From Escherichia coli (GTDB lineage: Bacteria > Pseudomonadota > Gammaproteobacteria > Enterobacterales > Enterobacteriaceae), in the NCBI RefSeq assembly GCF_030384885.1, contig NZ_CP128613.1: 64,000 nucleotides of DNA. The stretch is one strand, 5' to 3'. Below the pieces are notes generated by a model. That model did no database searches. It saw only the letters and a program-made list of their open reading frames with translations, and was not told the DNA's origin. The translations under genes and the position numbers were made by a program. This document shows, in pieces, positions 15,938-63,587 of the stretch (position 1 is its first letter; every line of letters begins with the position of its first letter).

Positions 15938-16561
15938 GTGGGTATGCTTGAAGCCAGAGAGTTACTTTGCGAGCGGGATGAACGAACCTTATTTAGTGGC
16001 TTGTCATTTACGCTGAACGCAGGCGAGTGGGTACAAATCACCGGTAGCAACGGCGCGGGGAAGACAACGCTTCTCCGTTTGCTGACGGGGTTGTCTCGCC
16101 CTGACGCAGGCGAGGTTCTCTGGCAAGGGCAGCCCTTGCATCAGGTACGCGACAGCTACCATCAAAACCTGTTATGGATAGGCCATCAGCCGGGGATCAA
16201 AACCCGGCTGACGGCGTTAGAAAATCTGCACTTTTATCATCGCGATGGCGATACCGCACAATGTCTGGAAGCCCTGGCGCAGGCCGGGCTTGCCGGATTC
16301 GAAGATATTCCTGTAAATCAACTTTCTGCCGGGCAACAACGCCGCGTCGCTTTAGCGCGTCTGTGGCTGACCCGTGCCACGTTATGGATACTCGACGAGC
16401 CTTTTACCGCGATTGACGTTAACGGCGTCGATCGTCTGACCCAGCGTATGGCGCAGCATACGGAGCAGGGGGGGATTGTGATTCTGACTACCCACCAGCC
16501 GCTCAACGTTACTGAAAGTAAAATCCGCCGCATTTCACTGACGAAAACGAGGGCCGAATAA
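15938..16561 (+). CDS. ccmA: Heme exporter ATP-binding protein CcmA
   Basis: 207-aa ORF; Walker [10 protein letters not shown]; LSAGQQRR signature. Confidence 0.9.
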
Positions 16562-37116: not shown

Positions 37117-38210
37117 TAACGTCCCTCAAAATCTATACGCGGATCGACCAGCGTATAGCTGATATCACTGACAATATTCAGCAGCAGGCCAATCAGGGTG
37201 AAAATATACAAGGTACCAAACATTACAGGATAATCGCGCGAGACGGTCGCTTCGTAGCCCAGTAAGCCAAGACCATTGAGTGAAAACATCACCTCAATCA
37301 GCAGCGAGCCGGTAAAAAACATGCTGATAAACGTCGCCGGAAAACCGGCAATCACCAGCAGCATGGCGTTGCGGAACACATGTTTCCAGAGAATATTTTT
37401 TTCACTTACCCCTTTCGCACGGGCGGTCACCACGTATTGCTTGCGCACTTCATCAAGGAATGAGTTTTTTGTCAGCATGGTCAGCGCCGCAAAGCCGCCA
37501 ATCACCGTCGCCAGCACCGGCAGCGTGATATGCCACAGATAATCGGTGATTTTCTGATACCACGGCAGCGAATCAAAGTTAGCGGAAACCAGGCCGCGCA
37601 GAGGGAACAGGTCGAAATAGCTGCCGCCCGCGAAGAAGACAATCAGCAGGATGGCAAACAAAAAGGCCGGAATGGCGTAGCCGATGATGATAAATGCGCT
37701 ACTCCAGACGTCAAAGCGGCTACCATTATAAACAGCTTTGCGAATACCCAGCGGAATCGACACCAGATAGATAATCAGCGTGCTCCACAATCCGAGGGTG
37801 ATGGAAACCGGCAGACTGTCTTTAATCAGCGTCAGCACCGAGGCGCTGCGAAACAGGCTATCGCCAAAATCAAAGCGGATGTAGTCCCAGAGCATTTTGA
37901 AGTAACGTTCGTGGATCGGCTTATCAAAACCGTAGCGATGAGTGATCTCGGCGATCACTTCTGGATCTAATCCGCGTCCGCCACGGTAATTACTGTCGCT
38001 GATATTGCCGACGCCCGTTTGTGCATGGCTGGCACGAACACCTTCACCGCCAGCGCCGGGTAATACTCCGGCATTACCAAACTCAATGGCGGCGATGGCC
38101 TGGTCGACCGGACCGCCAGGCGCAATTTGCACGATGAAAAAGTTGATAGTGATAATCGCCCATAACGTTGGGATCACCAGCAACAGACGGCGAATCAGAT
38201 AAGCGCCCAT
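37116..38210 (-). CDS. yejB: Peptide ABC transporter permease YejB
   Basis: 364-aa membrane ORF; start overlaps yejE stop region. Confidence 0.9.
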
Positions 38211-50979: not shown

Positions 50980-52671
50980 ATGAAAACGCTGCTGATTATT
51001 GACGCTAATCTCGGTCAGGCACGCGCCTATATGGCGAAGACCCTGCTGGGCGCGGCGGCGCGAAAAGCAAAACTGGAAATCATCGACAATCCGAACGACG
51101 CTGAAATGGCGATTGTTCTCGGTGATTCCATCCCGAACGACAGCGCGCTGAACGGTAAAAATGTCTGGCTGGGCGATATTTCCCGGGCAGTTGCGCACCC
51201 TGAGCTGTTCCTGAGTGAAGCCAAAGGCCATGCGAAACCTTACACTGCACCGGTCGCTGCGACAGCACCAGTTGCCACCAGCGGTCCGAAACGCGTAGTT
51301 GCGGTGACAGCTTGCCCGACTGGCGTAGCACACACATTTATGGCGGCTGAAGCCATTGAAACCGAAGCGAAAAAACGTGGCTGGTGGGTGAAAGTTGAAA
51401 CCCGTGGTTCTGTTGGCGCGGGTAATGCGATCACCCCTGAAGAAGTAGCCGCAGCGGATCTGGTGATTGTGGCGGCAGATATCGAAGTGGATCTGGCGAA
51501 ATTTGCTGGTAAACCGATGTATCGCACCTCTACCGGTCTGGCGCTGAAGAAAACCGCGCAGGAACTGGATAAAGCGGTTGCTGAAGCAACGCCGTATGAA
51601 CCGGCGGGCAAAGCTCAAACAGCGACCACTGAAGGTAAGAAAGAGGGTGCAGGCGCTTACCGTCACTTGCTGACGGGCGTCTCTTACATGCTGCCGATGG
51701 TCGTTGCAGGTGGTCTGTGTATCGCGCTTTCTTTTGCTTTTGGTATCGAAGCGTTTAAAGAGCCGGGTACGTTGGCAGCGGCGCTGATGCAGATTGGTGG
51801 TGGTTCAGCCTTTGCGCTGATGGTGCCGGTACTGGCAGGTTACATAGCCTTCTCCATTGCCGATCGTCCGGGTCTCACGCCGGGTCTGATTGGCGGTATG
51901 CTGGCGGTCAGCACCGGTTCTGGCTTCATTGGGGGTATTATTGCGGGCTTCCTGGCTGGTTACATTGCGAAGTTAATCAGTACGCAACTGAAACTGCCAC
52001 AGAGTATGGAGGCGCTGAAACCGATCCTGATCATTCCGCTAATTTCCAGTCTGGTGGTCGGTCTGGCGATGATCTACCTGATCGGTAAACCGGTTGCTGG
52101 CATTCTCGAAGGGTTGACTCACTGGCTGCAGACCATGGGGACTGCGAATGCGGTTCTGCTGGGGGCGATCCTCGGTGGCATGATGTGTACTGACATGGGC
52201 GGTCCGGTAAATAAAGCAGCGTACGCATTCGGTGTGGGTCTGCTGAGTACTCAAACCTATGGCCCGATGGCGGCGATTATGGCGGCAGGTATGGTGCCAC
52301 CGCTGGCAATGGGTCTGGCAACAATGGTGGCGCGTCGCAAATTCGACAAAGCGCAGCAGGAAGGTGGCAAAGCCGCTCTGGTTCTTGGTCTGTGCTTTAT
52401 TTCGGAAGGTGCAATTCCGTTTGCTGCTCGTGATCCGATGCGTGTGCTGCCGTGTTGTATCGTTGGTGGGGCGCTGACTGGCGCAATCTCAATGGCGATT
52501 GGTGCGAAACTGATGGCACCGCACGGTGGTCTGTTTGTTCTGCTGATCCCTGGCGCTATTACGCCGGTACTGGGTTACCTGGTAGCAATTATTGCCGGTA
52601 CGCTGGTGGCGGGTTTGGCCTATGCCTTCCTGAAACGTCCGGAAGTGGACGCAGTAGCGAAAGCAGCGTAA
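50980..52671 (+). CDS. fruA: Fructose PTS EIIB'BC component FruA
   Basis: 563-aa ORF; EIIB Cys motif VTACPTGVAHTFMA; multi-TM EIIC domain. Confidence 0.95.
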   Translation: MKTLLIIDANLGQARAYMAKTLLGAAARKAKLEIIDNPNDAEMAIVLGDSIPNDSALNGKNVWLGDISRAVAHPELFLSEAKGHAKPYTAPVAATAPVATSGPKRVVAVTACPTGVAHTFMAAEAIETEAKKRGWWVKVETRGSVGAGNAITPEEVAAADLVIVAADIEVDLAKFAGKPMYRTSTGLALKKTAQELDKAVAEATPYEPAGKAQTATTEGKKEGAGAYRHLLTGVSYMLPMVVAGGLCIALSFAFGIEAFKEPGTLAAALMQIGGGSAFALMVPVLAGYIAFSIADRPGLTPGLIGGMLAVSTGSGFIGGIIAGFLAGYIAKLISTQLKLPQSMEALKPILIIPLISSLVVGLAMIYLIGKPVAGILEGLTHWLQTMGTANAVLLGAILGGMMCTDMGGPVNKAAYAFGVGLLSTQTYGPMAAIMAAGMVPPLAMGLATMVARRKFDKAQQEGGKAALVLGLCFISEGAIPFAARDPMRVLPCCIVGGALTGAISMAIGAKLMAPHGGLFVLLIPGAITPVLGYLVAIIAGTLVAGLAYAFLKRPEVDAVAKAA

Positions 52672-52826
52672 TAAAAGGTGTGTTACAGGGCAGAAATTTC
52701 CTGCCCTGTAACATTTGATGAGCGCAAAGGGAATGACCAGTTTGTGAATGTAATTTTATGAATTTAAATGGTTTTATCTTTCAGTAGAAACCTGAAATGT
52801 TCATCAAACACTAAGGTTATTTCCTC

Positions 52827-52854
52827 AAGGGCAGATTATTTTCTGCCCTTTTTA
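52827..52854 (+). terminator. Rho-independent terminator after fruA
   Basis: aaGGGCAGattattttCTGCCCttttt; a weaker hairpin also at 52681-52713. Confidence 0.8.
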
Positions 52855-53093
52855 GTGTTCCTGTTCTGTGCATCCCGTCACAAATTCCTCACTTTTGTAA
52901 TTCAGGCATTTAATCGCATTTTGTGAGCCTGCTCAAATCTGCCCATTTTGCCTCTCTGGCGGCAATTTACTTTACGTAAAACATGCATACTATGAGCACA
53001 TGTTTAAATATGAACACATGTTTAAACCGTCTTTGCAGTATCTATATTCTTGTGGATTGACAGGGTTGGTAATTTTTTACCAGAGGACGTGCT

Positions 53094-54035
53094 ATGCGCG
53101 AAAAGGATTATGTCGTAATTATAGGCTCGGCGAATATTGATGTCGCCGGATATTCACATGAATCATTAAATTATGCGGATTCAAATCCAGGTAAAATAAA
53201 ATTTACGCCTGGTGGGGTAGGGCGCAATATTGCACAAAACCTGGCGTTGCTGGGTAATAAAGCCTGGCTACTGAGCGCCGTAGGCAGTGATTTTTATGGT
53301 CAATCGCTGCTAACGCAAACCAATCAATCTGGCGTTTATGTCGATAAATGCCTGATTGTGCCGGGAGAAAATACGTCGAGCTATTTATCATTACTCGATA
53401 ATACCGGTGAAATGCTGGTTGCTATAAATGACATGAATATTAGCAACGCTATTACAGCTGAATATCTCGCACAGCACCGTGAATTTATTCAGAGGGCAAA
53501 GGTCATTGTCGCGGACTGTAATATCAGTGAAGAGGCACTGGCATGGATTCTGGATAATGCCGCCAACGTACCCATATTTGTCGATCCTGTTTCTGCGTGG
53601 AAATGTGTCAAAGTGCGCGACCGTCTAAATCTGATCCACACTCTCAAGCCAAACCGCCTTGAAGCGGAAACCCTGAGTGGGATTGCGCTGTCAGGGCGTG
53701 AAGATGTGGCAAAGGTTGCCGCCTGGTTCCATCAACATGGCCTGAACCGCCTGGTGCTGAGCATGGGCGGTGATGGTGTTTATTACAGTGATATCGGCGG
53801 TGAAAGTGGTTGGTCTGCGCCGATTAAAACCAATGTCATTAATGTTACCGGAGCGGGCGATGCCATGATGGCGGGACTTGCTTCGTGTTGGGTAGACGGA
53901 ATGCCGTTTGCCGAATCTGTTCGTTTCGCACAGGGATGTTCGTCAATGGCGCTCTCCTGTGAATACACCAATAACCCCGATTTATCGATTGCCAACGTTA
54001 TATCGTTAGTGGAGAACGCAGAATGTCTGAATTAA
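53094..54035 (+). CDS. psuK: Pseudouridine kinase PsuK (YeiC), pfkB family
   Basis: 313-aa ORF with TGAGDAMMAG motif; AT-rich coding sequence. Confidence 0.85.
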   Translation: MREKDYVVIIGSANIDVAGYSHESLNYADSNPGKIKFTPGGVGRNIAQNLALLGNKAWLLSAVGSDFYGQSLLTQTNQSGVYVDKCLIVPGENTSSYLSLLDNTGEMLVAINDMNISNAITAEYLAQHREFIQRAKVIVADCNISEEALAWILDNAANVPIFVDPVSAWKCVKVRDRLNLIHTLKPNRLEAETLSGIALSGREDVAKVAAWFHQHGLNRLVLSMGGDGVYYSDIGGESGWSAPIKTNVINVTGAGDAMMAGLASCWVDGMPFAESVRFAQGCSSMALSCEYTNNPDLSIANVISLVENAECLN

Positions 54036-54961
54036 AAATTTCCCCTGAATTATTACAAATTTCCCCGGAAGTGCAGGACGCTTTAAAAAACAAAAAACCG
54101 GTTGTGGCACTGGAATCGACAATTATTTCTCACGGGATGCCATTCCCGCAAAATGCTGAGACGGCAATTGAAGTAGAAGACACAATTCGTAAGCACGGTG
54201 CTGTACCTGCAACAATCGCCATTATTGGTGGTGTCATGAAAGTAGGTTTGAGCAAAGAAGAAATTGAATTGTTAGGCCGTGAAGGACATAACGTGACGAA
54301 AGTCAGTCGCCGTGATTTACCTTTTGTCGTTGCCGCAGGAAAAAATGGCGCGACCACCGTTGCTTCAACGATGATTATCGCGGCACTGGCAGGAATTAAA
54401 GTATTTGCAACGGGGGGGATTGGTGGTGTGCATCGCGGTGCGGAACATACATTCGATATTTCTGCCGATTTACAGGAACTGGCAAATACTAATGTCACCG
54501 TTGTTTGTGCCGGTGCAAAATCTATTCTCGATTTAGGATTAACAACAGAATATTTAGAAACCTTCGGTGTACCGTTAATTGGCTATCAGACAAAAGCGCT
54601 GCCTGCGTTTTTCTGCCGTACCAGCCCATTTGAAGTCAGTATTCGCCTTGATAGTGCCACGGAAATCGCTCGTGCAATGGCAGTGAAATGGCAAACCGGT
54701 TTGAACGGCGGCCTGGTAGTGGCGAATCCGATCCCGGAGCAGTTTGCGATGCCGGAGGAATCTATCAATGCAGCCATAGATCAAGCTGTCGCCGAAGCCG
54801 AAGAGCAGGGCGTTATTGGTAAAGAAAGTACACCGTTCCTGCTGGCTCGTGTTGCTGAACTGACCGGTGGTGACAGCCTGAAATCCAACATCCAACTGGT
54901 GTTCAACAACGCCATTCTGGCGAGCGAAATTGCCAAAGAATACCAGCGTCTCGCGGGTTAA
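54023..54961 (+). CDS. psuG: Pseudouridine-5'-phosphate glycosidase PsuG (YeiN)
   Basis: 312-aa ORF overlapping psuK end by 13 nt. Confidence 0.85.
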   Translation: MSELKISPELLQISPEVQDALKNKKPVVALESTIISHGMPFPQNAETAIEVEDTIRKHGAVPATIAIIGGVMKVGLSKEEIELLGREGHNVTKVSRRDLPFVVAAGKNGATTVASTMIIAALAGIKVFATGGIGGVHRGAEHTFDISADLQELANTNVTVVCAGAKSILDLGLTTEYLETFGVPLIGYQTKALPAFFCRTSPFEVSIRLDSATEIARAMAVKWQTGLNGGLVVANPIPEQFAMPEESINAAIDQAVAEAEEQGVIGKESTPFLLARVAELTGGDSLKSNIQLVFNNAILASEIAKEYQRLAG

Positions 54962-55054: not shown

Positions 55055-56292
55055 ATGGATATAATGAGAAGTTTGGTGGGTATGGTGGTATTGCTGGCAA
55101 TTGCATTCTTATTGTCAGTGAATAAAAAAGGTATCAGCATACGCACGGTCGGGGCTGCATTGCTGCTGCAAATCGCTATTGGTGGCATTATGCTCTACTT
55201 CCCACCGGGAAAATGGGCAGTAGAGCAGGCGGCATTAGGCGTGCATAAAGTGATGTCTTACAGTGATGCCGGTAGCGCCTTCATTTTTGGTTCGCTGGTT
55301 GGGCCGAAAATGGATGTCCTGTTTGATGGCGCGGGCTTTATCTTCGCCTTTCGCGTACTTCCGGCAATTATTTTCGTCACAGCGCTCATCAGCCTGCTGT
55401 ACTACATTGGCGTGATGGGGCTGCTAATCCGCATTCTTGGCAGTATTTTTCAGAAAGCCCTCAACATCAGCAAAATCGAATCTTTTGTTGCGGTTACCAC
55501 TATTTTCCTCGGGCAAAATGAGATCCCGGCGATCGTTAAACCGTTTATCGATCGCATGAATCGCAACGAGCTATTTACGGCAATTTGTAGCGGGATGGCG
55601 TCCATTGCCGGTTCGATGATGATTGGTTATGCCGGAATGGGCGTACCAATTGACTACCTGTTAGCGGCATCGCTGATGGTATTTTGTTTGCACGTATTCT
55701 TAGCCCAGCCACCGAGCCTTCGCAGGTGACATTTGAAAATCTGTCGTTCAGCGAAACGCCGCCAAAAAGCTTTATCGAAGCGGCGGCGAGCGGTGCGATG
55801 ACCGGGTTGAAAATCGCCGCTGGTGTGGCGACGGTGGTAATGGCGTTTGTGGCAATTATTGCGCTGATCAACGGCATTATCGGCGGAATTGGTGGCTGGT
55901 TTGGTTTTTCCAATGCCTCTCTGGAAAGTATTTTTGGCTATGTGCTGGCACCGCTGGCGTGGATCATGGGCGTGGACTGGAGTGATGCCAACCTTGCGGG
56001 TAGCCTGATTGGGCAGAAACTGGCGATTAACGAATTCGTCGCTTACCTGAGTTTCTCCCCATACCTGCAAACGGGCGGCACGCTGGAAGTGAAAACCATT
56101 GCGATTATCTCCTTTGCGCTTTGTGGTTTTGCTAACTTTGGTTCTATCGGTGTTGTCGTTGGGGCGTTTTCGGCTATTTCGCCAAAACGCGCGCCGGAAA
56201 TCGCTCAGCTTGGGTTACGGGCGTTGGCAGCAGCAACGCTTTCAAACCTGATGAGTGCGACCATTGCCGGGTTCTTTATTGGTTTAGCTTGA
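55055..56292 (+). pseudogene. psuT: Nucleoside (putative pseudouridine) transporter PsuT/YeiM, frameshifted into two ORFs (55055-55729 and 55684-56292)
   Basis: The two ORFs are in different frames and together span 1238 nt versus 1251 nt for intact paralog nupX; by-eye alignment places a 13-nt gap between 55679 and 55680. Confidence 0.7.
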
Positions 56293-56360: not shown

Positions 56361-57020
56361 TTACTGCATCATCCCGGAGAATTTATTCTCCGGGTCCATC
56401 TCCAGCGCCAGCCCTAACAACTGCTTTCTGTTTTTAATCAGATACCCTTTCTTGCTTTTAATTAATAAACCGTCATGAATGAATTGCGCGAGAACATATA
56501 AAAGATGTCGATAAGAAACGCCCAAATACTCTGCCGCTTGCGTATGCTTTTCTTGATAAAGATCACCTTCCTGCGAGAGTAATATAAAAGCTGCCAGGCG
56601 ATTCATTAACGGAAATGATTGATTCTGAGTTAAAGAAACAATATTACGATAATTTTTATGACTTAAGGTGACGCAGAGTTTTCGTAAAAATAGCGTATCG
56701 TTTAATAACAGCGGGCGGTAATGTTTCATAGGGAGCGCAAGGCACCAACACTCTTCAATCGCCTGTACCGCTCGTGGTTCATGATCTTTATCGATTAACT
56801 CAATCTCGCCAATAAAACAGGGTGCAGCAAAGAAATCAATCAGCGACACGCGACCATTAGCAAGCGTGGCGTAAAGCCTGGCGCGGCCTCGCGTCAGGTA
56901 AAACAGCCATGACGGCTGTTGCCCTTCCTGCACAATGTAGTCACGCGCTAAAAAATGAAACAGCCGTGTATCGGCTGAAACATCCGTTGAAAAGCAATCC
57001 TTATACGCGGACTCACTCAT
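56361..57020 (-). CDS. yeiL: Crp/Fnr-family transcriptional regulator YeiL (Nsr)
   Basis: 219 aa from ATG at 57018-57020 ([13 protein letters not shown]...); cNMP-binding-like domain and C-terminal HTH. Confidence 0.85.
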
Positions 57021-57188
57021 CAATTGCTGCTTAAGATCATTATTGTGGATTTCTTTCACGATGTTTATCCGCTATGAGATTTCTCATATTTAGCATACGT
57101 ACGCTGTTGTTAAGATTCAATCATCGGCCCGGTCGAATTTTCTTTGCTGTAGAAAAAATAACGCAACTGGAAACAGAGGAAATAAACA

Positions 57189-59535: not shown

Positions 59536-60624
59536 TTACACCATCGGCACTAATGAAAGCGCGTTATCGGCAGACAGGGTAGGGTTGTTTAAGCTGCCGC
59601 TGGCGCGTGAAATTGCCGCGCAGGCCATCGCAAAACGGGCACTATCACGGAAACTGCTTCCTTCCAGAAAGCTATACACCAGGCCCGCCATAAAACCATC
59701 GTCAGCACCAAAACTGTCTACCGTCGTATGCGCTGGCGCAGTCAGCAAAAATTGTTCGCCATCCTTTTGGCTGCAATAAACAGACTCATCGGGCAAATAA
59801 ACAAACAGTTGCTGAACGCCTTGCTGATGCAACGCATTCACTGCGGCATTACGATCAGCATCGCGGGTTATCGGCTGGCCCCATAAAATTTCCAGCTCCG
59901 GCAAAGTGGGTTTCAGAGTGTGAATATGCGCCAGCCAGTGTTTGATTTTGCCCGCTTTGAATTCTGAAACGGTATCGACAAACACCGGGATTTCATCAGC
60001 GAGGGTAAAGACCCACTCCAGCGCCTCGGCTGTCAGGTTGCAATCAGCCAGTACCACGCCCGCATGACGAAGTAAATCGCGCGACCCGTTCAGTAGTTGC
60101 GGTGTCAACTGATCCAGCAGATGGGTATCGTTAATCGCCAGCACGGTTTGATCGTCTCGATTGGCAATTGCCAGATACGTCGATGTGCTTTGACCATGTA
60201 AACGAACGCAGCCGGAGACATTCACGCCGGCGCGGCGCGTTTCTTCCAGGAGCATTTCGCCATAAAAGTCATCGCCAATCACTGAAAGCAAATGGACGTC
60301 GCGGCCTAACAGCGCCAGATTGTGGGCGATATTGCGTCCAACGCCGCCTGCCGAGCAATGAATTGTACCGGGATGAGAAGCCGCTTGCGGGTAACGGATA
60401 TCCGCCATCCCGCGAATATCCATATTGATTGTCCCCACCACTACGCAGTATTCCTGCTCGGTGAGAATGTAACCTTTGCCTTTAATCCGACCTTTGCGCA
60501 TTAAATCCATAATATGCGCTGCAACACGCGAACGGCTGATTTGCAGCATATCCGCAATTTCGTTCTGCTGAATCAGCGGGTTACGCCTTAATATTGCAAG
60601 GATCTCCTTCTCCCGGTTATTCAT
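59536..60624 (-). CDS. yeiI: Putative sugar/nucleoside kinase with N-terminal HTH domain YeiI
   Basis: 362-aa ORF; N-terminal HTH (EILAILRRNPLIQQNEIADMLQISRSRV) fused to a pfkB-type kinase domain. Confidence 0.85.
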   Translation of the reverse strand: MNNREKEILAILRRNPLIQQNEIADMLQISRSRVAAHIMDLMRKGRIKGKGYILTEQEYCVVVGTINMDIRGMADIRYPQAASHPGTIHCSAGGVGRNIAHNLALLGRDVHLLSVIGDDFYGEMLLEETRRAGVNVSGCVRLHGQSTSTYLAIANRDDQTVLAINDTHLLDQLTPQLLNGSRDLLRHAGVVLADCNLTAEALEWVFTLADEIPVFVDTVSEFKAGKIKHWLAHIHTLKPTLPELEILWGQPITRDADRNAAVNALHQQGVQQLFVYLPDESVYCSQKDGEQFLLTAPAHTTVDSFGADDGFMAGLVYSFLEGSSFRDSARFAMACAAISRASGSLNNPTLSADNALSLVPMV

Positions 60625-62705: not shown

Positions 62706-63587
62706 ATGCACATCACCCTCCGGCAGTTGGAAGTTTTTGCAGAAGTATTGAAAAGTGGATCAACCACCCAGGCGTCGGTGATGCTGGCGTTGTCGCAATC
62801 AGCAGTGAGCGCAGCCTTGACTGACCTGGAAGGGCAGCTTGGCGTGCAACTGTTTGATCGCGTGGGGAAAAGACTGGTTGTTAATGAACACGGGCGGCTG
62901 CTCTATCCGCGTGCGTTGGCACTGCTTGAACAGGCGATTGAAATCGAACAACTGTTTCGCGAAGACAACGGCGCGATTCGTATCTATGCCAGTAGTACTA
63001 TCGGTAACTACATTCTGCCTGCAGTCATTGCCCGTTATCGCCATGATTATCCGCAGTTGCCGATTGAACTTAGCGTTGGGAACAGCCAGGACGTGATGCA
63101 AGCGGTGCTGGATTTCCGCGTTGATATTGGCTTTATTGAAGGACCGTGCCACAGCACTGAAATCATCTCTGAACCGTGGCTGGAAGACGAGCTGGTGGTT
63201 TTCGCCGCGCCGACTTCGCCGTTGGCTCGTGGTCCGGTCACCTTAGAGCAGCTGGCCGCTGCGCCGTGGATCCTGCGTGAACGCGGTTCCGGCACGCGGG
63301 AGATTGTCGATTATCTGTTGCTGTCACATTTACCGAAGTTTGAGATGGCGATGGAGTTAGGTAACTCCGAGGCAATCAAACATGCGGTGCGTCATGGATT
63401 GGGAATTAGTTGCCTGTCGCGACGGGTCATTGAAGATCAATTGCAGGCAGGCACATTAAGTGAAGTTGCGGTCCCTCTGCCGCGCCTGATGCGTACGTTG
63501 TGGCGTATACATCATCGGCAAAAACACCTTTCCAACGCGCTACGGCGCTTTCTGGACTATTGCGATCCCGCGAATGTACCGCGTTAA
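62706..63587 (+). CDS. yeiE: LysR-type transcriptional regulator YeiE
   Basis: 293-aa ORF; N-terminal LysR HTH ([38 protein letters not shown]). Confidence 0.9.

Follow-up and report, generated by a model that had tools for sequence, protein, structure and literature searches.

The locus considered here raises a simple question: what purpose, if any, is served by a short direct repeat just upstream of psuK, the first gene of the psuKGT operon for pseudouridine catabolism in Escherichia coli? The repeat lies in a 64,000-nucleotide stretch of contig NZ_CP128613.1 (assembly GCF_030384885.1), hereafter the window, in which an earlier note had pointed to two copies of ACATGTTTAAA between fruA and psuK and had read them as a transcription-factor operator, with the products of yeiL or yeiI as candidate regulators. 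Our comparison suggests that the conserved element is a pair of palindromes, and we consider it likely, though well short of certain, that this pair forms a two-site operator at the psuKGT promoter, regulated by YeiI acting as a pseudouridine-sensing repressor.

The repeat itself was borne out as described. ACATGTTTAAA occurs on the + strand at 52998-53008 and again at 53016-53026, a start-to-start distance of 18 bp, and the AT-rich region of some 420 bp that holds it is a spacer of 422 bp (fruA ends at 52671 and psuK starts at 53094) with 37.7% G+C, as compared with 51.3% in the window. The exact match within the repeat is 12 nt (CACATGTTTAAA), longer than the 11-mer first reported; of 3000 dinucleotide shuffles of the spacer, 9 contained an exact direct repeat this long (12 nt or more) within 40 bp. 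Tandem Repeats Finder resolves two full 18-bp units, TATGAGCACATGTTTAAA and TATGAACACATGTTTAAA, at 52991-53026 with 94% matches. This tandem duplication (2.0 copies on the + strand, 17 of 18 positions identical) holds both 11-mers and is identical in K-12, and the entire fruA-psuK intergenic stretch is 100% identical to that of E. coli strain 2013C-4282.

Head-to-tail units that agree at 17 of 18 positions look like a recent duplication, and their near-identity is confined to one Escherichia haplotype, as might be expected if replication slippage had produced the repeat neutrally and without function. Copy number and length are fixed, however: all 4210 full-length genome matches to the K-12-type E. 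coli sequence span 101 bp at 95% identity or more, with no one-copy or three-copy alleles, and the single length exception among the matches listed is an IS1 insertion. A variable-number tandem repeat, or slippage polymorphism, was therefore rejected. In E. coli VE-T9 an IS1 element sits inside the proposed operator, at the equivalent of window position ~53004/53005, where it cuts off the native promoter and the first palindrome from the second palindrome and psuK.

The nature of the conserved element became apparent from an alignment of the 300 bp upstream of psuK in 12 genomes (E. coli, two other Escherichia, E. albertii, four Citrobacter, two Buttiauxella and a Raoultella-labelled metagenome-assembled genome). 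The repeat region is the best-conserved block of this alignment, and it is kept as palindromes rather than as a direct repeat. The conserved unit consists of two 12-bp palindromes of the form RAACA-NN-TGTTY, 18-19 bp apart, which in the window correspond to the predicted operator sites O1 (52994-53005, GAGCACATGTTT) and O2 (53012-53023, GAACACATGTTT), with 18 bp between them. The direct repeat is lost, but both palindromes are kept, in E. albertii, Citrobacter (GAACACGTGTTT and GAACATGTGCTC), Buttiauxella and the divergent E. coli haplotype represented by SCU-111 (GAACATGTGTTT and GAACACGTGCTC). Since the SCU-111 haplotype keeps the palindromes and loses the direct repeat, the near-perfect tandem copy is best read as a lineage-specific homogenisation imposed on an older two-site architecture. 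Two short palindromes that the earlier note had listed with the repeat are present (TTACGTAA at 52972-52979 and ATGCAT at 52983-52988), but they lie in the spacer between the predicted -35 and -10 hexamers and are not conserved outside Escherichia.

The divergent psuK haplotype is 80-90% identical and occurs in 965 E. coli genomes. Over the interval from psuK to yeiI the species carries two deeply divergent haplotypes, yeiI being 80-90% identical in 2012 genomes, and in SCU-111 nupX is reduced to a remnant.

We extended the comparison by scanning the sequences upstream of psuG operons for pairs of RAACANNTGTTY sites at an offset of 18 or 19, scoring each against 2000 dinucleotide shuffles. The pair is present in 10 of the 12 lineages examined that have a YeiI-like regulator gene, namely Escherichia, Citrobacter, Buttiauxella, Salmonella, Affinibrenneria, Yersinia, Serratia, Pasteurella, Shewanella and Aliivibrio, and in each of these the best pair is equalled by at most 7 of the 2000 shuffles. 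The sites read AGACACATGTTT (O1) and AAACAAGTGTCC (O2) in Yersinia, and AAACTCATGTTT and again AAACAAGTGTCC in Serratia; Pasteurella has AAACAAAAGTTG and AAACAGGTGTTG, Shewanella AAACAAAAGTTT and AAACATATGTTT, Aliivibrio AAACAATAGTTA and GAACATATGTTT, Affinibrenneria AAACAAGTGTTC and GGTCATATGTTT, and Salmonella AAACATATGTTT and GAAAATGCGCTC. Two control operons, from Aeromonas jandaei and a Bartonella sp., encode a PsuK without a winged helix, have no yeiI-like gene within 6 kb, and show no pair. The contrast is thus 10/12 lineages with the regulator as against 0/2 without it, in a small sample in which the absence of yeiI was judged within 6 kb. The conservation in orthologous promoters on which the earlier note had staked its proposal therefore favours a function, with the palindrome pair as the element kept across genera. 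Because both palindromes are conserved in 10/12 lineages and copy number is fixed in E. coli, slippage is excluded as the whole story; at most, duplication or conversion homogenised a pre-existing second site, and we regard a functionless origin by slippage as extremely improbable.

Whereas the separation of O1 and O2 can be 18 or 19 bp, each palindrome has a fixed 2-bp centre, which argues for the 12-mer as the predicted binding unit. In Shewanella and Aliivibrio the inner spacing between the sites is N7 instead of N6, and the 12-bp palindromes remain intact. Across the 64-kb window only 0.01 such pairs would be expected by chance, and the pair at the psuK promoter has one mismatch. The only other pair in the window lies inside yeiE (62706-63587), at 62928-62957 (GAACAGGCGATT and GAACAACTGTTT, 18-bp spacing, two mismatches in total); it is in coding sequence and may be due to chance. 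A single exact GAACACATGTTT inside yejB (37374-37385), also coding and with no partner site, is probably a chance occurrence.

How would such a pair act? Its position relative to the promoter suggests an answer. A predicted -35 hexamer, TTTACT (52966-52971, + strand), and a predicted -10 hexamer, TACTAT (52988-52993, + strand), are separated by a 16-bp spacer, and the -10 abuts O1. The flanking ATTTAC of the former and the TA..AT of the latter are invariant in the 12 aligned promoters, and Salmonella and Yersinia have a matching promoter geometry with O1 right after the -10. From these conserved hexamers we predict a transcription start at ~53000, so that O1 would span -6 to +6 and O2 +13 to +24. 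A promoter scanner had proposed a different promoter (-35 TTTAAA at 53021-53026, -10 TATATT at 53043-53048), which we set aside because its -10 is not conserved outside Escherichia and an adaptive mutation, considered below, falls in the upstream hexamer.

Further upstream, a CRP-like site, TGTGA-N6-TCAAA (52922-52937), matches at 9/10 core positions, and its TTGTGA and TCA.A are invariant in the 12 aligned promoters. At class I CRP-activated promoters the CRP site is centred near -61.5, -71.5 or -82.5; here the centre is at ~-70.5 to -71.5, a distance defined relative to the predicted start only. The site is a putative class I CRP site, and the promoter is probably CRP-assisted. We found no CRP-binding data for psuK in the literature, and a paper on genomic SELEX (systematic evolution of ligands by exponential enrichment) with CRP mentions neither psuK nor yeiC.

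The predicted -35 is also the site of a published, recurrent adaptive single-nucleotide polymorphism (SNP), which gives the predicted promoter independent support. In a mouse-gut study, an A to C change at 2257444, in the psuK/fruA spacer, rose in 5/7 mice; its authors assigned the change to the psuK promoter and reported that psuK expression changed, as did growth in the presence and absence of pseudouridine (PMC9509342). Data Set S1 of a second study records a breseq call of psuK/fruA A to C, intergenic (-126/+297), in 3/4 long-term stationary cultures (PMC7858067). Position -126 of psuK is window position 52968, the third T of TTTACT (the mapping was checked on MG1655), and equating it with 2257444 assumes that K-12 reference versions differ by an offset of 1978 bp. 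Read on the gene strand, the SNP is a T to G change that converts TTTACT into TTGACT; it lies 26 bp upstream of O1 and is a textbook improvement of a -35. The SNP itself is thus already published, and what is new here is its reading as a -35 up-mutation 26 bp upstream of the proposed operator; the sections of these papers available to us describe no operator, repeat or regulator.

The spacer contains, in addition, two terminator-like hairpins downstream of fruA. The first (52681-52713) marks the upstream boundary of the psuK regulatory region and the second lies at 52827-52850; they share the arms AGGGCAGA / TCTGCCCT, ~113 nt apart. In some genomes a hypothetical protein is annotated in this spacer.

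If the palindromes are an operator, what protein binds them? The genes of the locus run fruB-fruK-fruA-psuK-psuG-psuT, followed by yeiL on the - strand, rihB, nupX and yeiI on the - strand. The proposed regulated operon begins with psuK (53094-54035, +), which encodes a pseudouridine kinase without a DNA-binding domain, and continues with psuG (54023-54961, +), for pseudouridine-5'-phosphate glycosidase, and psuT (55055-56292, +), for a nucleoside transporter. Both regulators suggested by the earlier note are encoded nearby: YeiL (56361-57059, -) is a member of the CRP/FNR family with a cyclic-nucleotide-binding domain and a Crp-type helix-turn-helix domain, and YeiI (59536-60624, -) has a winged helix at amino acids 1-48 followed by a PfkB domain that resembles pseudouridine kinase.

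YeiL would bind through the central TGTTT-N6-GAACA (53001-53016), whose 5-N6-5 layout is that of CRP-type sites. Its gene adjoins psuT in E. coli, its domains are of the appropriate type, and TGTTY-N6-GAACA occurs in all aligned Enterobacterales promoters. The gene content of related operons points elsewhere. In Citrobacter and Buttiauxella a yeiI homologue directly follows psuT, with no yeiL, rihB or nupX between them, and in Salmonella and Affinibrenneria psuK-psuG-psuT and a convergent yeiI form a four-gene module in unrelated chromosomal contexts. Because yeiL is absent from the module in these four genera, all of which keep the sites, YeiL is unsupported. The operons of Yersinia, Serratia, Pasteurella, Shewanella and Aliivibrio also have the sites, and there the sole regulator-like domain is a winged helix on the kinase. 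The N7 inner spacing of Shewanella and Aliivibrio is at odds with the fixed geometry of CRP/FNR sites, and the yeiL-rihB intergenic region holds no comparable site. We therefore consider YeiL a very improbable regulator, and of the two proteins proposed by the earlier note it is YeiI that is favoured.

The association of YeiI-like proteins with the operon is close throughout. Yersinia, Serratia, Xenorhabdus, Pasteurella, Shewanella, Aliivibrio and a Ruminococcaceae contig lack a separate psuK and have a winged-helix-PfkB gene in first place, before psuG; in 5/7 of these lineages the palindrome pair lies just upstream of the fusion gene. Overall, the regulator gene either adjoins psuKGT or is the fused first gene before psuG in 12/12 lineages examined. 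The called start codon of the Yersinia and Serratia fusion genes lies inside O1 (ACACATGTTT), from which we suspect that the public gene models are too long; the true start is likely nine codons downstream (MTSREKQIL).

The same association bears on a third possibility, that the sites are an operator for a regulator encoded elsewhere, such as DeoR or another repressor of nucleoside catabolism, CytR or a factor yet to be characterised. In its favour, the substrate is a nucleoside, and the binding of YeiI is itself a prediction. DeoR and CytR, like the system proposed here, repress nucleoside uptake and catabolism operons together with CRP, and the DeoR operator TGTT....AACA resembles the inner 16-mer at 53001-53016. 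Taking that operator to be TGTTAGAA.TTCTAACA, we count agreement with TGTTTAAATATGAACA at 12/16 positions, by eye rather than against a curated matrix. The unit conserved here, however, is not a 16-mer but a 12-mer with a 2-bp (N2) centre, present twice; YeiI is not related to either DeoR or CytR, and no link to the deoR or cytR genes was seen at the loci examined. Any such regulator would have to track the winged-helix-PfkB protein over Enterobacterales, Pasteurellales, Alteromonadales and Vibrionales, in differing contexts, and the motif is missing from the two operons that lack this protein. An outside regulator is accordingly unlikely in our view. Other known boxes fared no better. A PhoP box, a TGTTTA direct repeat with an 11-bp period, was rejected because the TGTTTA copies here are 18 bp apart and the second copy is TGCTCT in other genera; TyrR, NrdR, FabR and IHF sites, judged by eye, failed on spacing or central-base requirements.

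In YeiI, Pfam assigns HTH_24 to amino acids 1-48 (E = 1.2e-10) and PfkB to 58-348, and the closest solved relative is E. coli pseudouridine kinase (E = 2e-66). In the AlphaFold model, which has a predicted local distance difference test score (pLDDT) of 90, the kinase part superimposes on PsuK 7vtd with a template-modelling score of 0.96, and the DNA-binding domain consists of three helices and a wing with a pLDDT of roughly 83-93. Sequence and fold searches returned no solved structure that combines a winged helix with this kinase fold. Crystal structures of EcPsuK define 12 residues that contact pseudouridine (PMC9247573), and YeiI is identical at 11 of them, the exception being M114T. The sensor domain could plausibly bind the pathway metabolite, as far as can be judged from these residues and the model.

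The kinase-like proteins separate into two groups that differ at the catalytic centre. Members of the YeiI group (E. coli, Salmonella, [Enterobacter] lignolyticus and Affinibrenneria) are 38-43% identical to PsuK, with E. coli YeiI at 38%, and in the protein alignment only this group shows N187T/S and the replacement of GAGD by GADD or GADE. The fused proteins retain N187 as well as GAGD, the anion-hole and catalytic motif, which reads GCGD in the Ruminococcaceae protein. Identity to E. coli PsuK is 54-59% for the Yersinia, Serratia, Xenorhabdus and Pasteurella fusions and 38-45% for those of Shewanella, Aliivibrio and Ruminococcaceae; below ~60% identity the nearest relatives of PsuK are mostly winged-helix fusions. 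The recognition-helix region, ISRSxVAxHIxxL...KGxIKGKGY, is near-invariant over the fused and YeiI groups, which fits a shared DNA motif. By alignment, then, the catalytic motif of YeiI is degenerate, while its DNA-binding domain and ligand pocket are kept.

We suggest the following mechanism. Transcription of psuKGT would start from a weak sigma-70 promoter, probably assisted by CRP, with O1 and O2 directly downstream of the -10. Since PsuK dimerises via its beta-thumb (PMC9247573), one YeiI dimer may occupy each palindrome, and together the two would cover ~-6 to +24 and block initiation. YeiI would leave the DNA once pseudouridine or its 5'-phosphate had bound to the kinase-like domain. The ancestral protein may have been a bifunctional kinase-repressor encoded by the first gene of the operon, as would still be the case in Yersinia, Serratia, Pasteurella, Shewanella and Aliivibrio. 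Duplication in the Enterobacteriaceae would then have given rise to PsuK, which kept the enzyme activity and lost the winged helix, and to YeiI, which kept the winged helix and the pocket while its catalytic motif decayed. This history of duplication and split would be the simplest one.

A number of points weigh against this model. Its evidence is all comparative, and we infer the binding of YeiI to the sites, as we do repression rather than activation, what the ligand is, where transcription starts and the dependence on CRP. Xenorhabdus and the Ruminococcaceae contig encode the fusion protein, yet the upstream scan found no recognisable pair in either, and the control genomes may encode a yeiI elsewhere. 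No comparable site lies upstream of yeiI/nfo, yeiL-rihB, rihB-nupX or psuG-psuT in the E. coli window; autoregulation and a wider local regulon were rejected on this ground. The half-site centres within a palindrome are 7 bp apart, which is tight for a winged-helix dimer, and the 18-bp distance between the sites corresponds to a non-integral number of helical turns. In the literature we found YeiI only as a hypothetical transcription factor or a protein of function unknown, and NCBIfam (June 2026 release) names it 'sugar kinase'; a search there for EMSA, footprinting or ChIP results on the sites likewise found none. As regards the adaptive mutation, PMC7858067 also lists the SNP position among the differences of its parental strains from the reference, and the parallelism in that study may therefore be partly standing variation. 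Finally, any palindrome that is present twice has mutually complementary copies, which makes a leader-RNA hairpin a further possibility, and in Citrobacter FP75 and Yersinia there are compensatory changes on both sides that keep the pairing.

On this last account the element would act as RNA or single-stranded DNA: the psuK leader would begin, at its 5' end, with an O1-O2 hairpin affecting stability, elongation or translation, and the palindromic form of the sites would be incidental. In E. coli the leader (53000-53100) has a better fold than its shuffles (z = -3.6), with an 11-bp hairpin between 53002-53012 and 53017-53027, and RNAalifold pairs O1 with O2 in eight sequences. The register of the E. 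coli hairpin differs from that in other genera, however, and 15/22 departures from the consensus are uncompensated. Complementarity between the sites (8.6/12 Watson-Crick positions) is no higher than the palindromy within them, for which a hairpin has no need: the mean number of self-complementary positions per site is 8.1/12 over 28 sites from 14 promoter sequences in 10 lineages, with E. coli and Citrobacter counted more than once. Rfam gave no family match, the best hit (E = 0.011) being far below the gathering score, and the element accompanies a DNA-binding domain and is missing from the two controls. Taken together, these comparisons leave an RNA element quite unlikely. The operator proposed by the earlier note is favoured by the same comparisons, with the amendment that its conserved unit is the palindrome pair and not the direct repeat.

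The proposed arrangement, with YeiI as repressor of psuKGT, has parallels among known systems. ROK-family repressors such as NagC, Mlc and B. subtilis XylR likewise join an N-terminal winged helix to a sugar-kinase fold that serves as ligand sensor, and that family includes catalytically inactive regulator paralogues beside active kinases, the regulators repressing catabolic and transport operons. ROK proteins have the ASKHA (actin-like) kinase fold, however, whereas YeiI has the PfkB/ribokinase fold and is nearest to pseudouridine kinase, and the operators differ in sequence and architecture. The fusions of Yersinia, Serratia, Pasteurella, Shewanella and Aliivibrio are more reminiscent of BirA (biotin ligase and bio repressor) and NadR, in which a winged helix or helix-turn-helix on an active enzyme controls the enzyme's own pathway. 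The enzyme families are unrelated, and the product of BirA is a co-repressor, whereas the ligand of YeiI would be an inducer; moreover, E. coli would split the two functions between PsuK and YeiI. Archaeal RbkR, a riboflavin kinase fused to a winged helix, autoregulates its pathway, but with another kinase fold, in another domain of life and through another motif.

Two further observations can be added. The psuT gene is disrupted in the window by a 13-bp deletion after 55677 (55677/55678; GGCGATCCCTGGT), by comparison with strain 2013C-4282 and K-12, which leaves open reading frames of 224 and 202 amino acids. As the gene is split in two, the transporter is probably a pseudogene here. The gene ccmA (window ~15939-16561) is annotated as frameshifted in strain 2013C-4282, a strain that is identical to the window in the stretches compared.

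The proposed switch has implications at several levels. The enzymes of pseudouridine catabolism, PsuK and PsuG, are known, and in the literature we found no characterised regulator of psuKGT, no regulator class of this kind and no description of this operator; if the model is true, YeiI would be the missing switch, and yeiI, an uncharacterised y-gene, would be assigned a function. A pseudouridine-responsive repressor with its operator would, if true, also provide a biosensor part for pseudouridine production strains. Among the targets of selection during colonisation of the mouse gut by K-12, the psuK promoter is one of the most repeatable, and it changes in long-term stationary culture as well; knowing what holds this promoter off would explain the advantage of the -35 up-mutation. 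More broadly, and with about equal chances of proving right or wrong, the YeiI family may represent a type of one-component regulator, so far uncharacterised, that uses the PfkB fold, and may provide the first sensors dedicated to a modified nucleoside of RNA, namely pseudouridine. Kinase and repressor would be combined in one protein in five of the lineages of Gammaproteobacteria examined and in a contig from a Firmicute, which showed no sites; the Enterobacteriaceae would have split the two functions while retaining the double operator, and the -35 up-mutation selected in the gut would out-compete repression. This split between enzyme and regulator would offer an example of subfunctionalisation that is open to direct testing.

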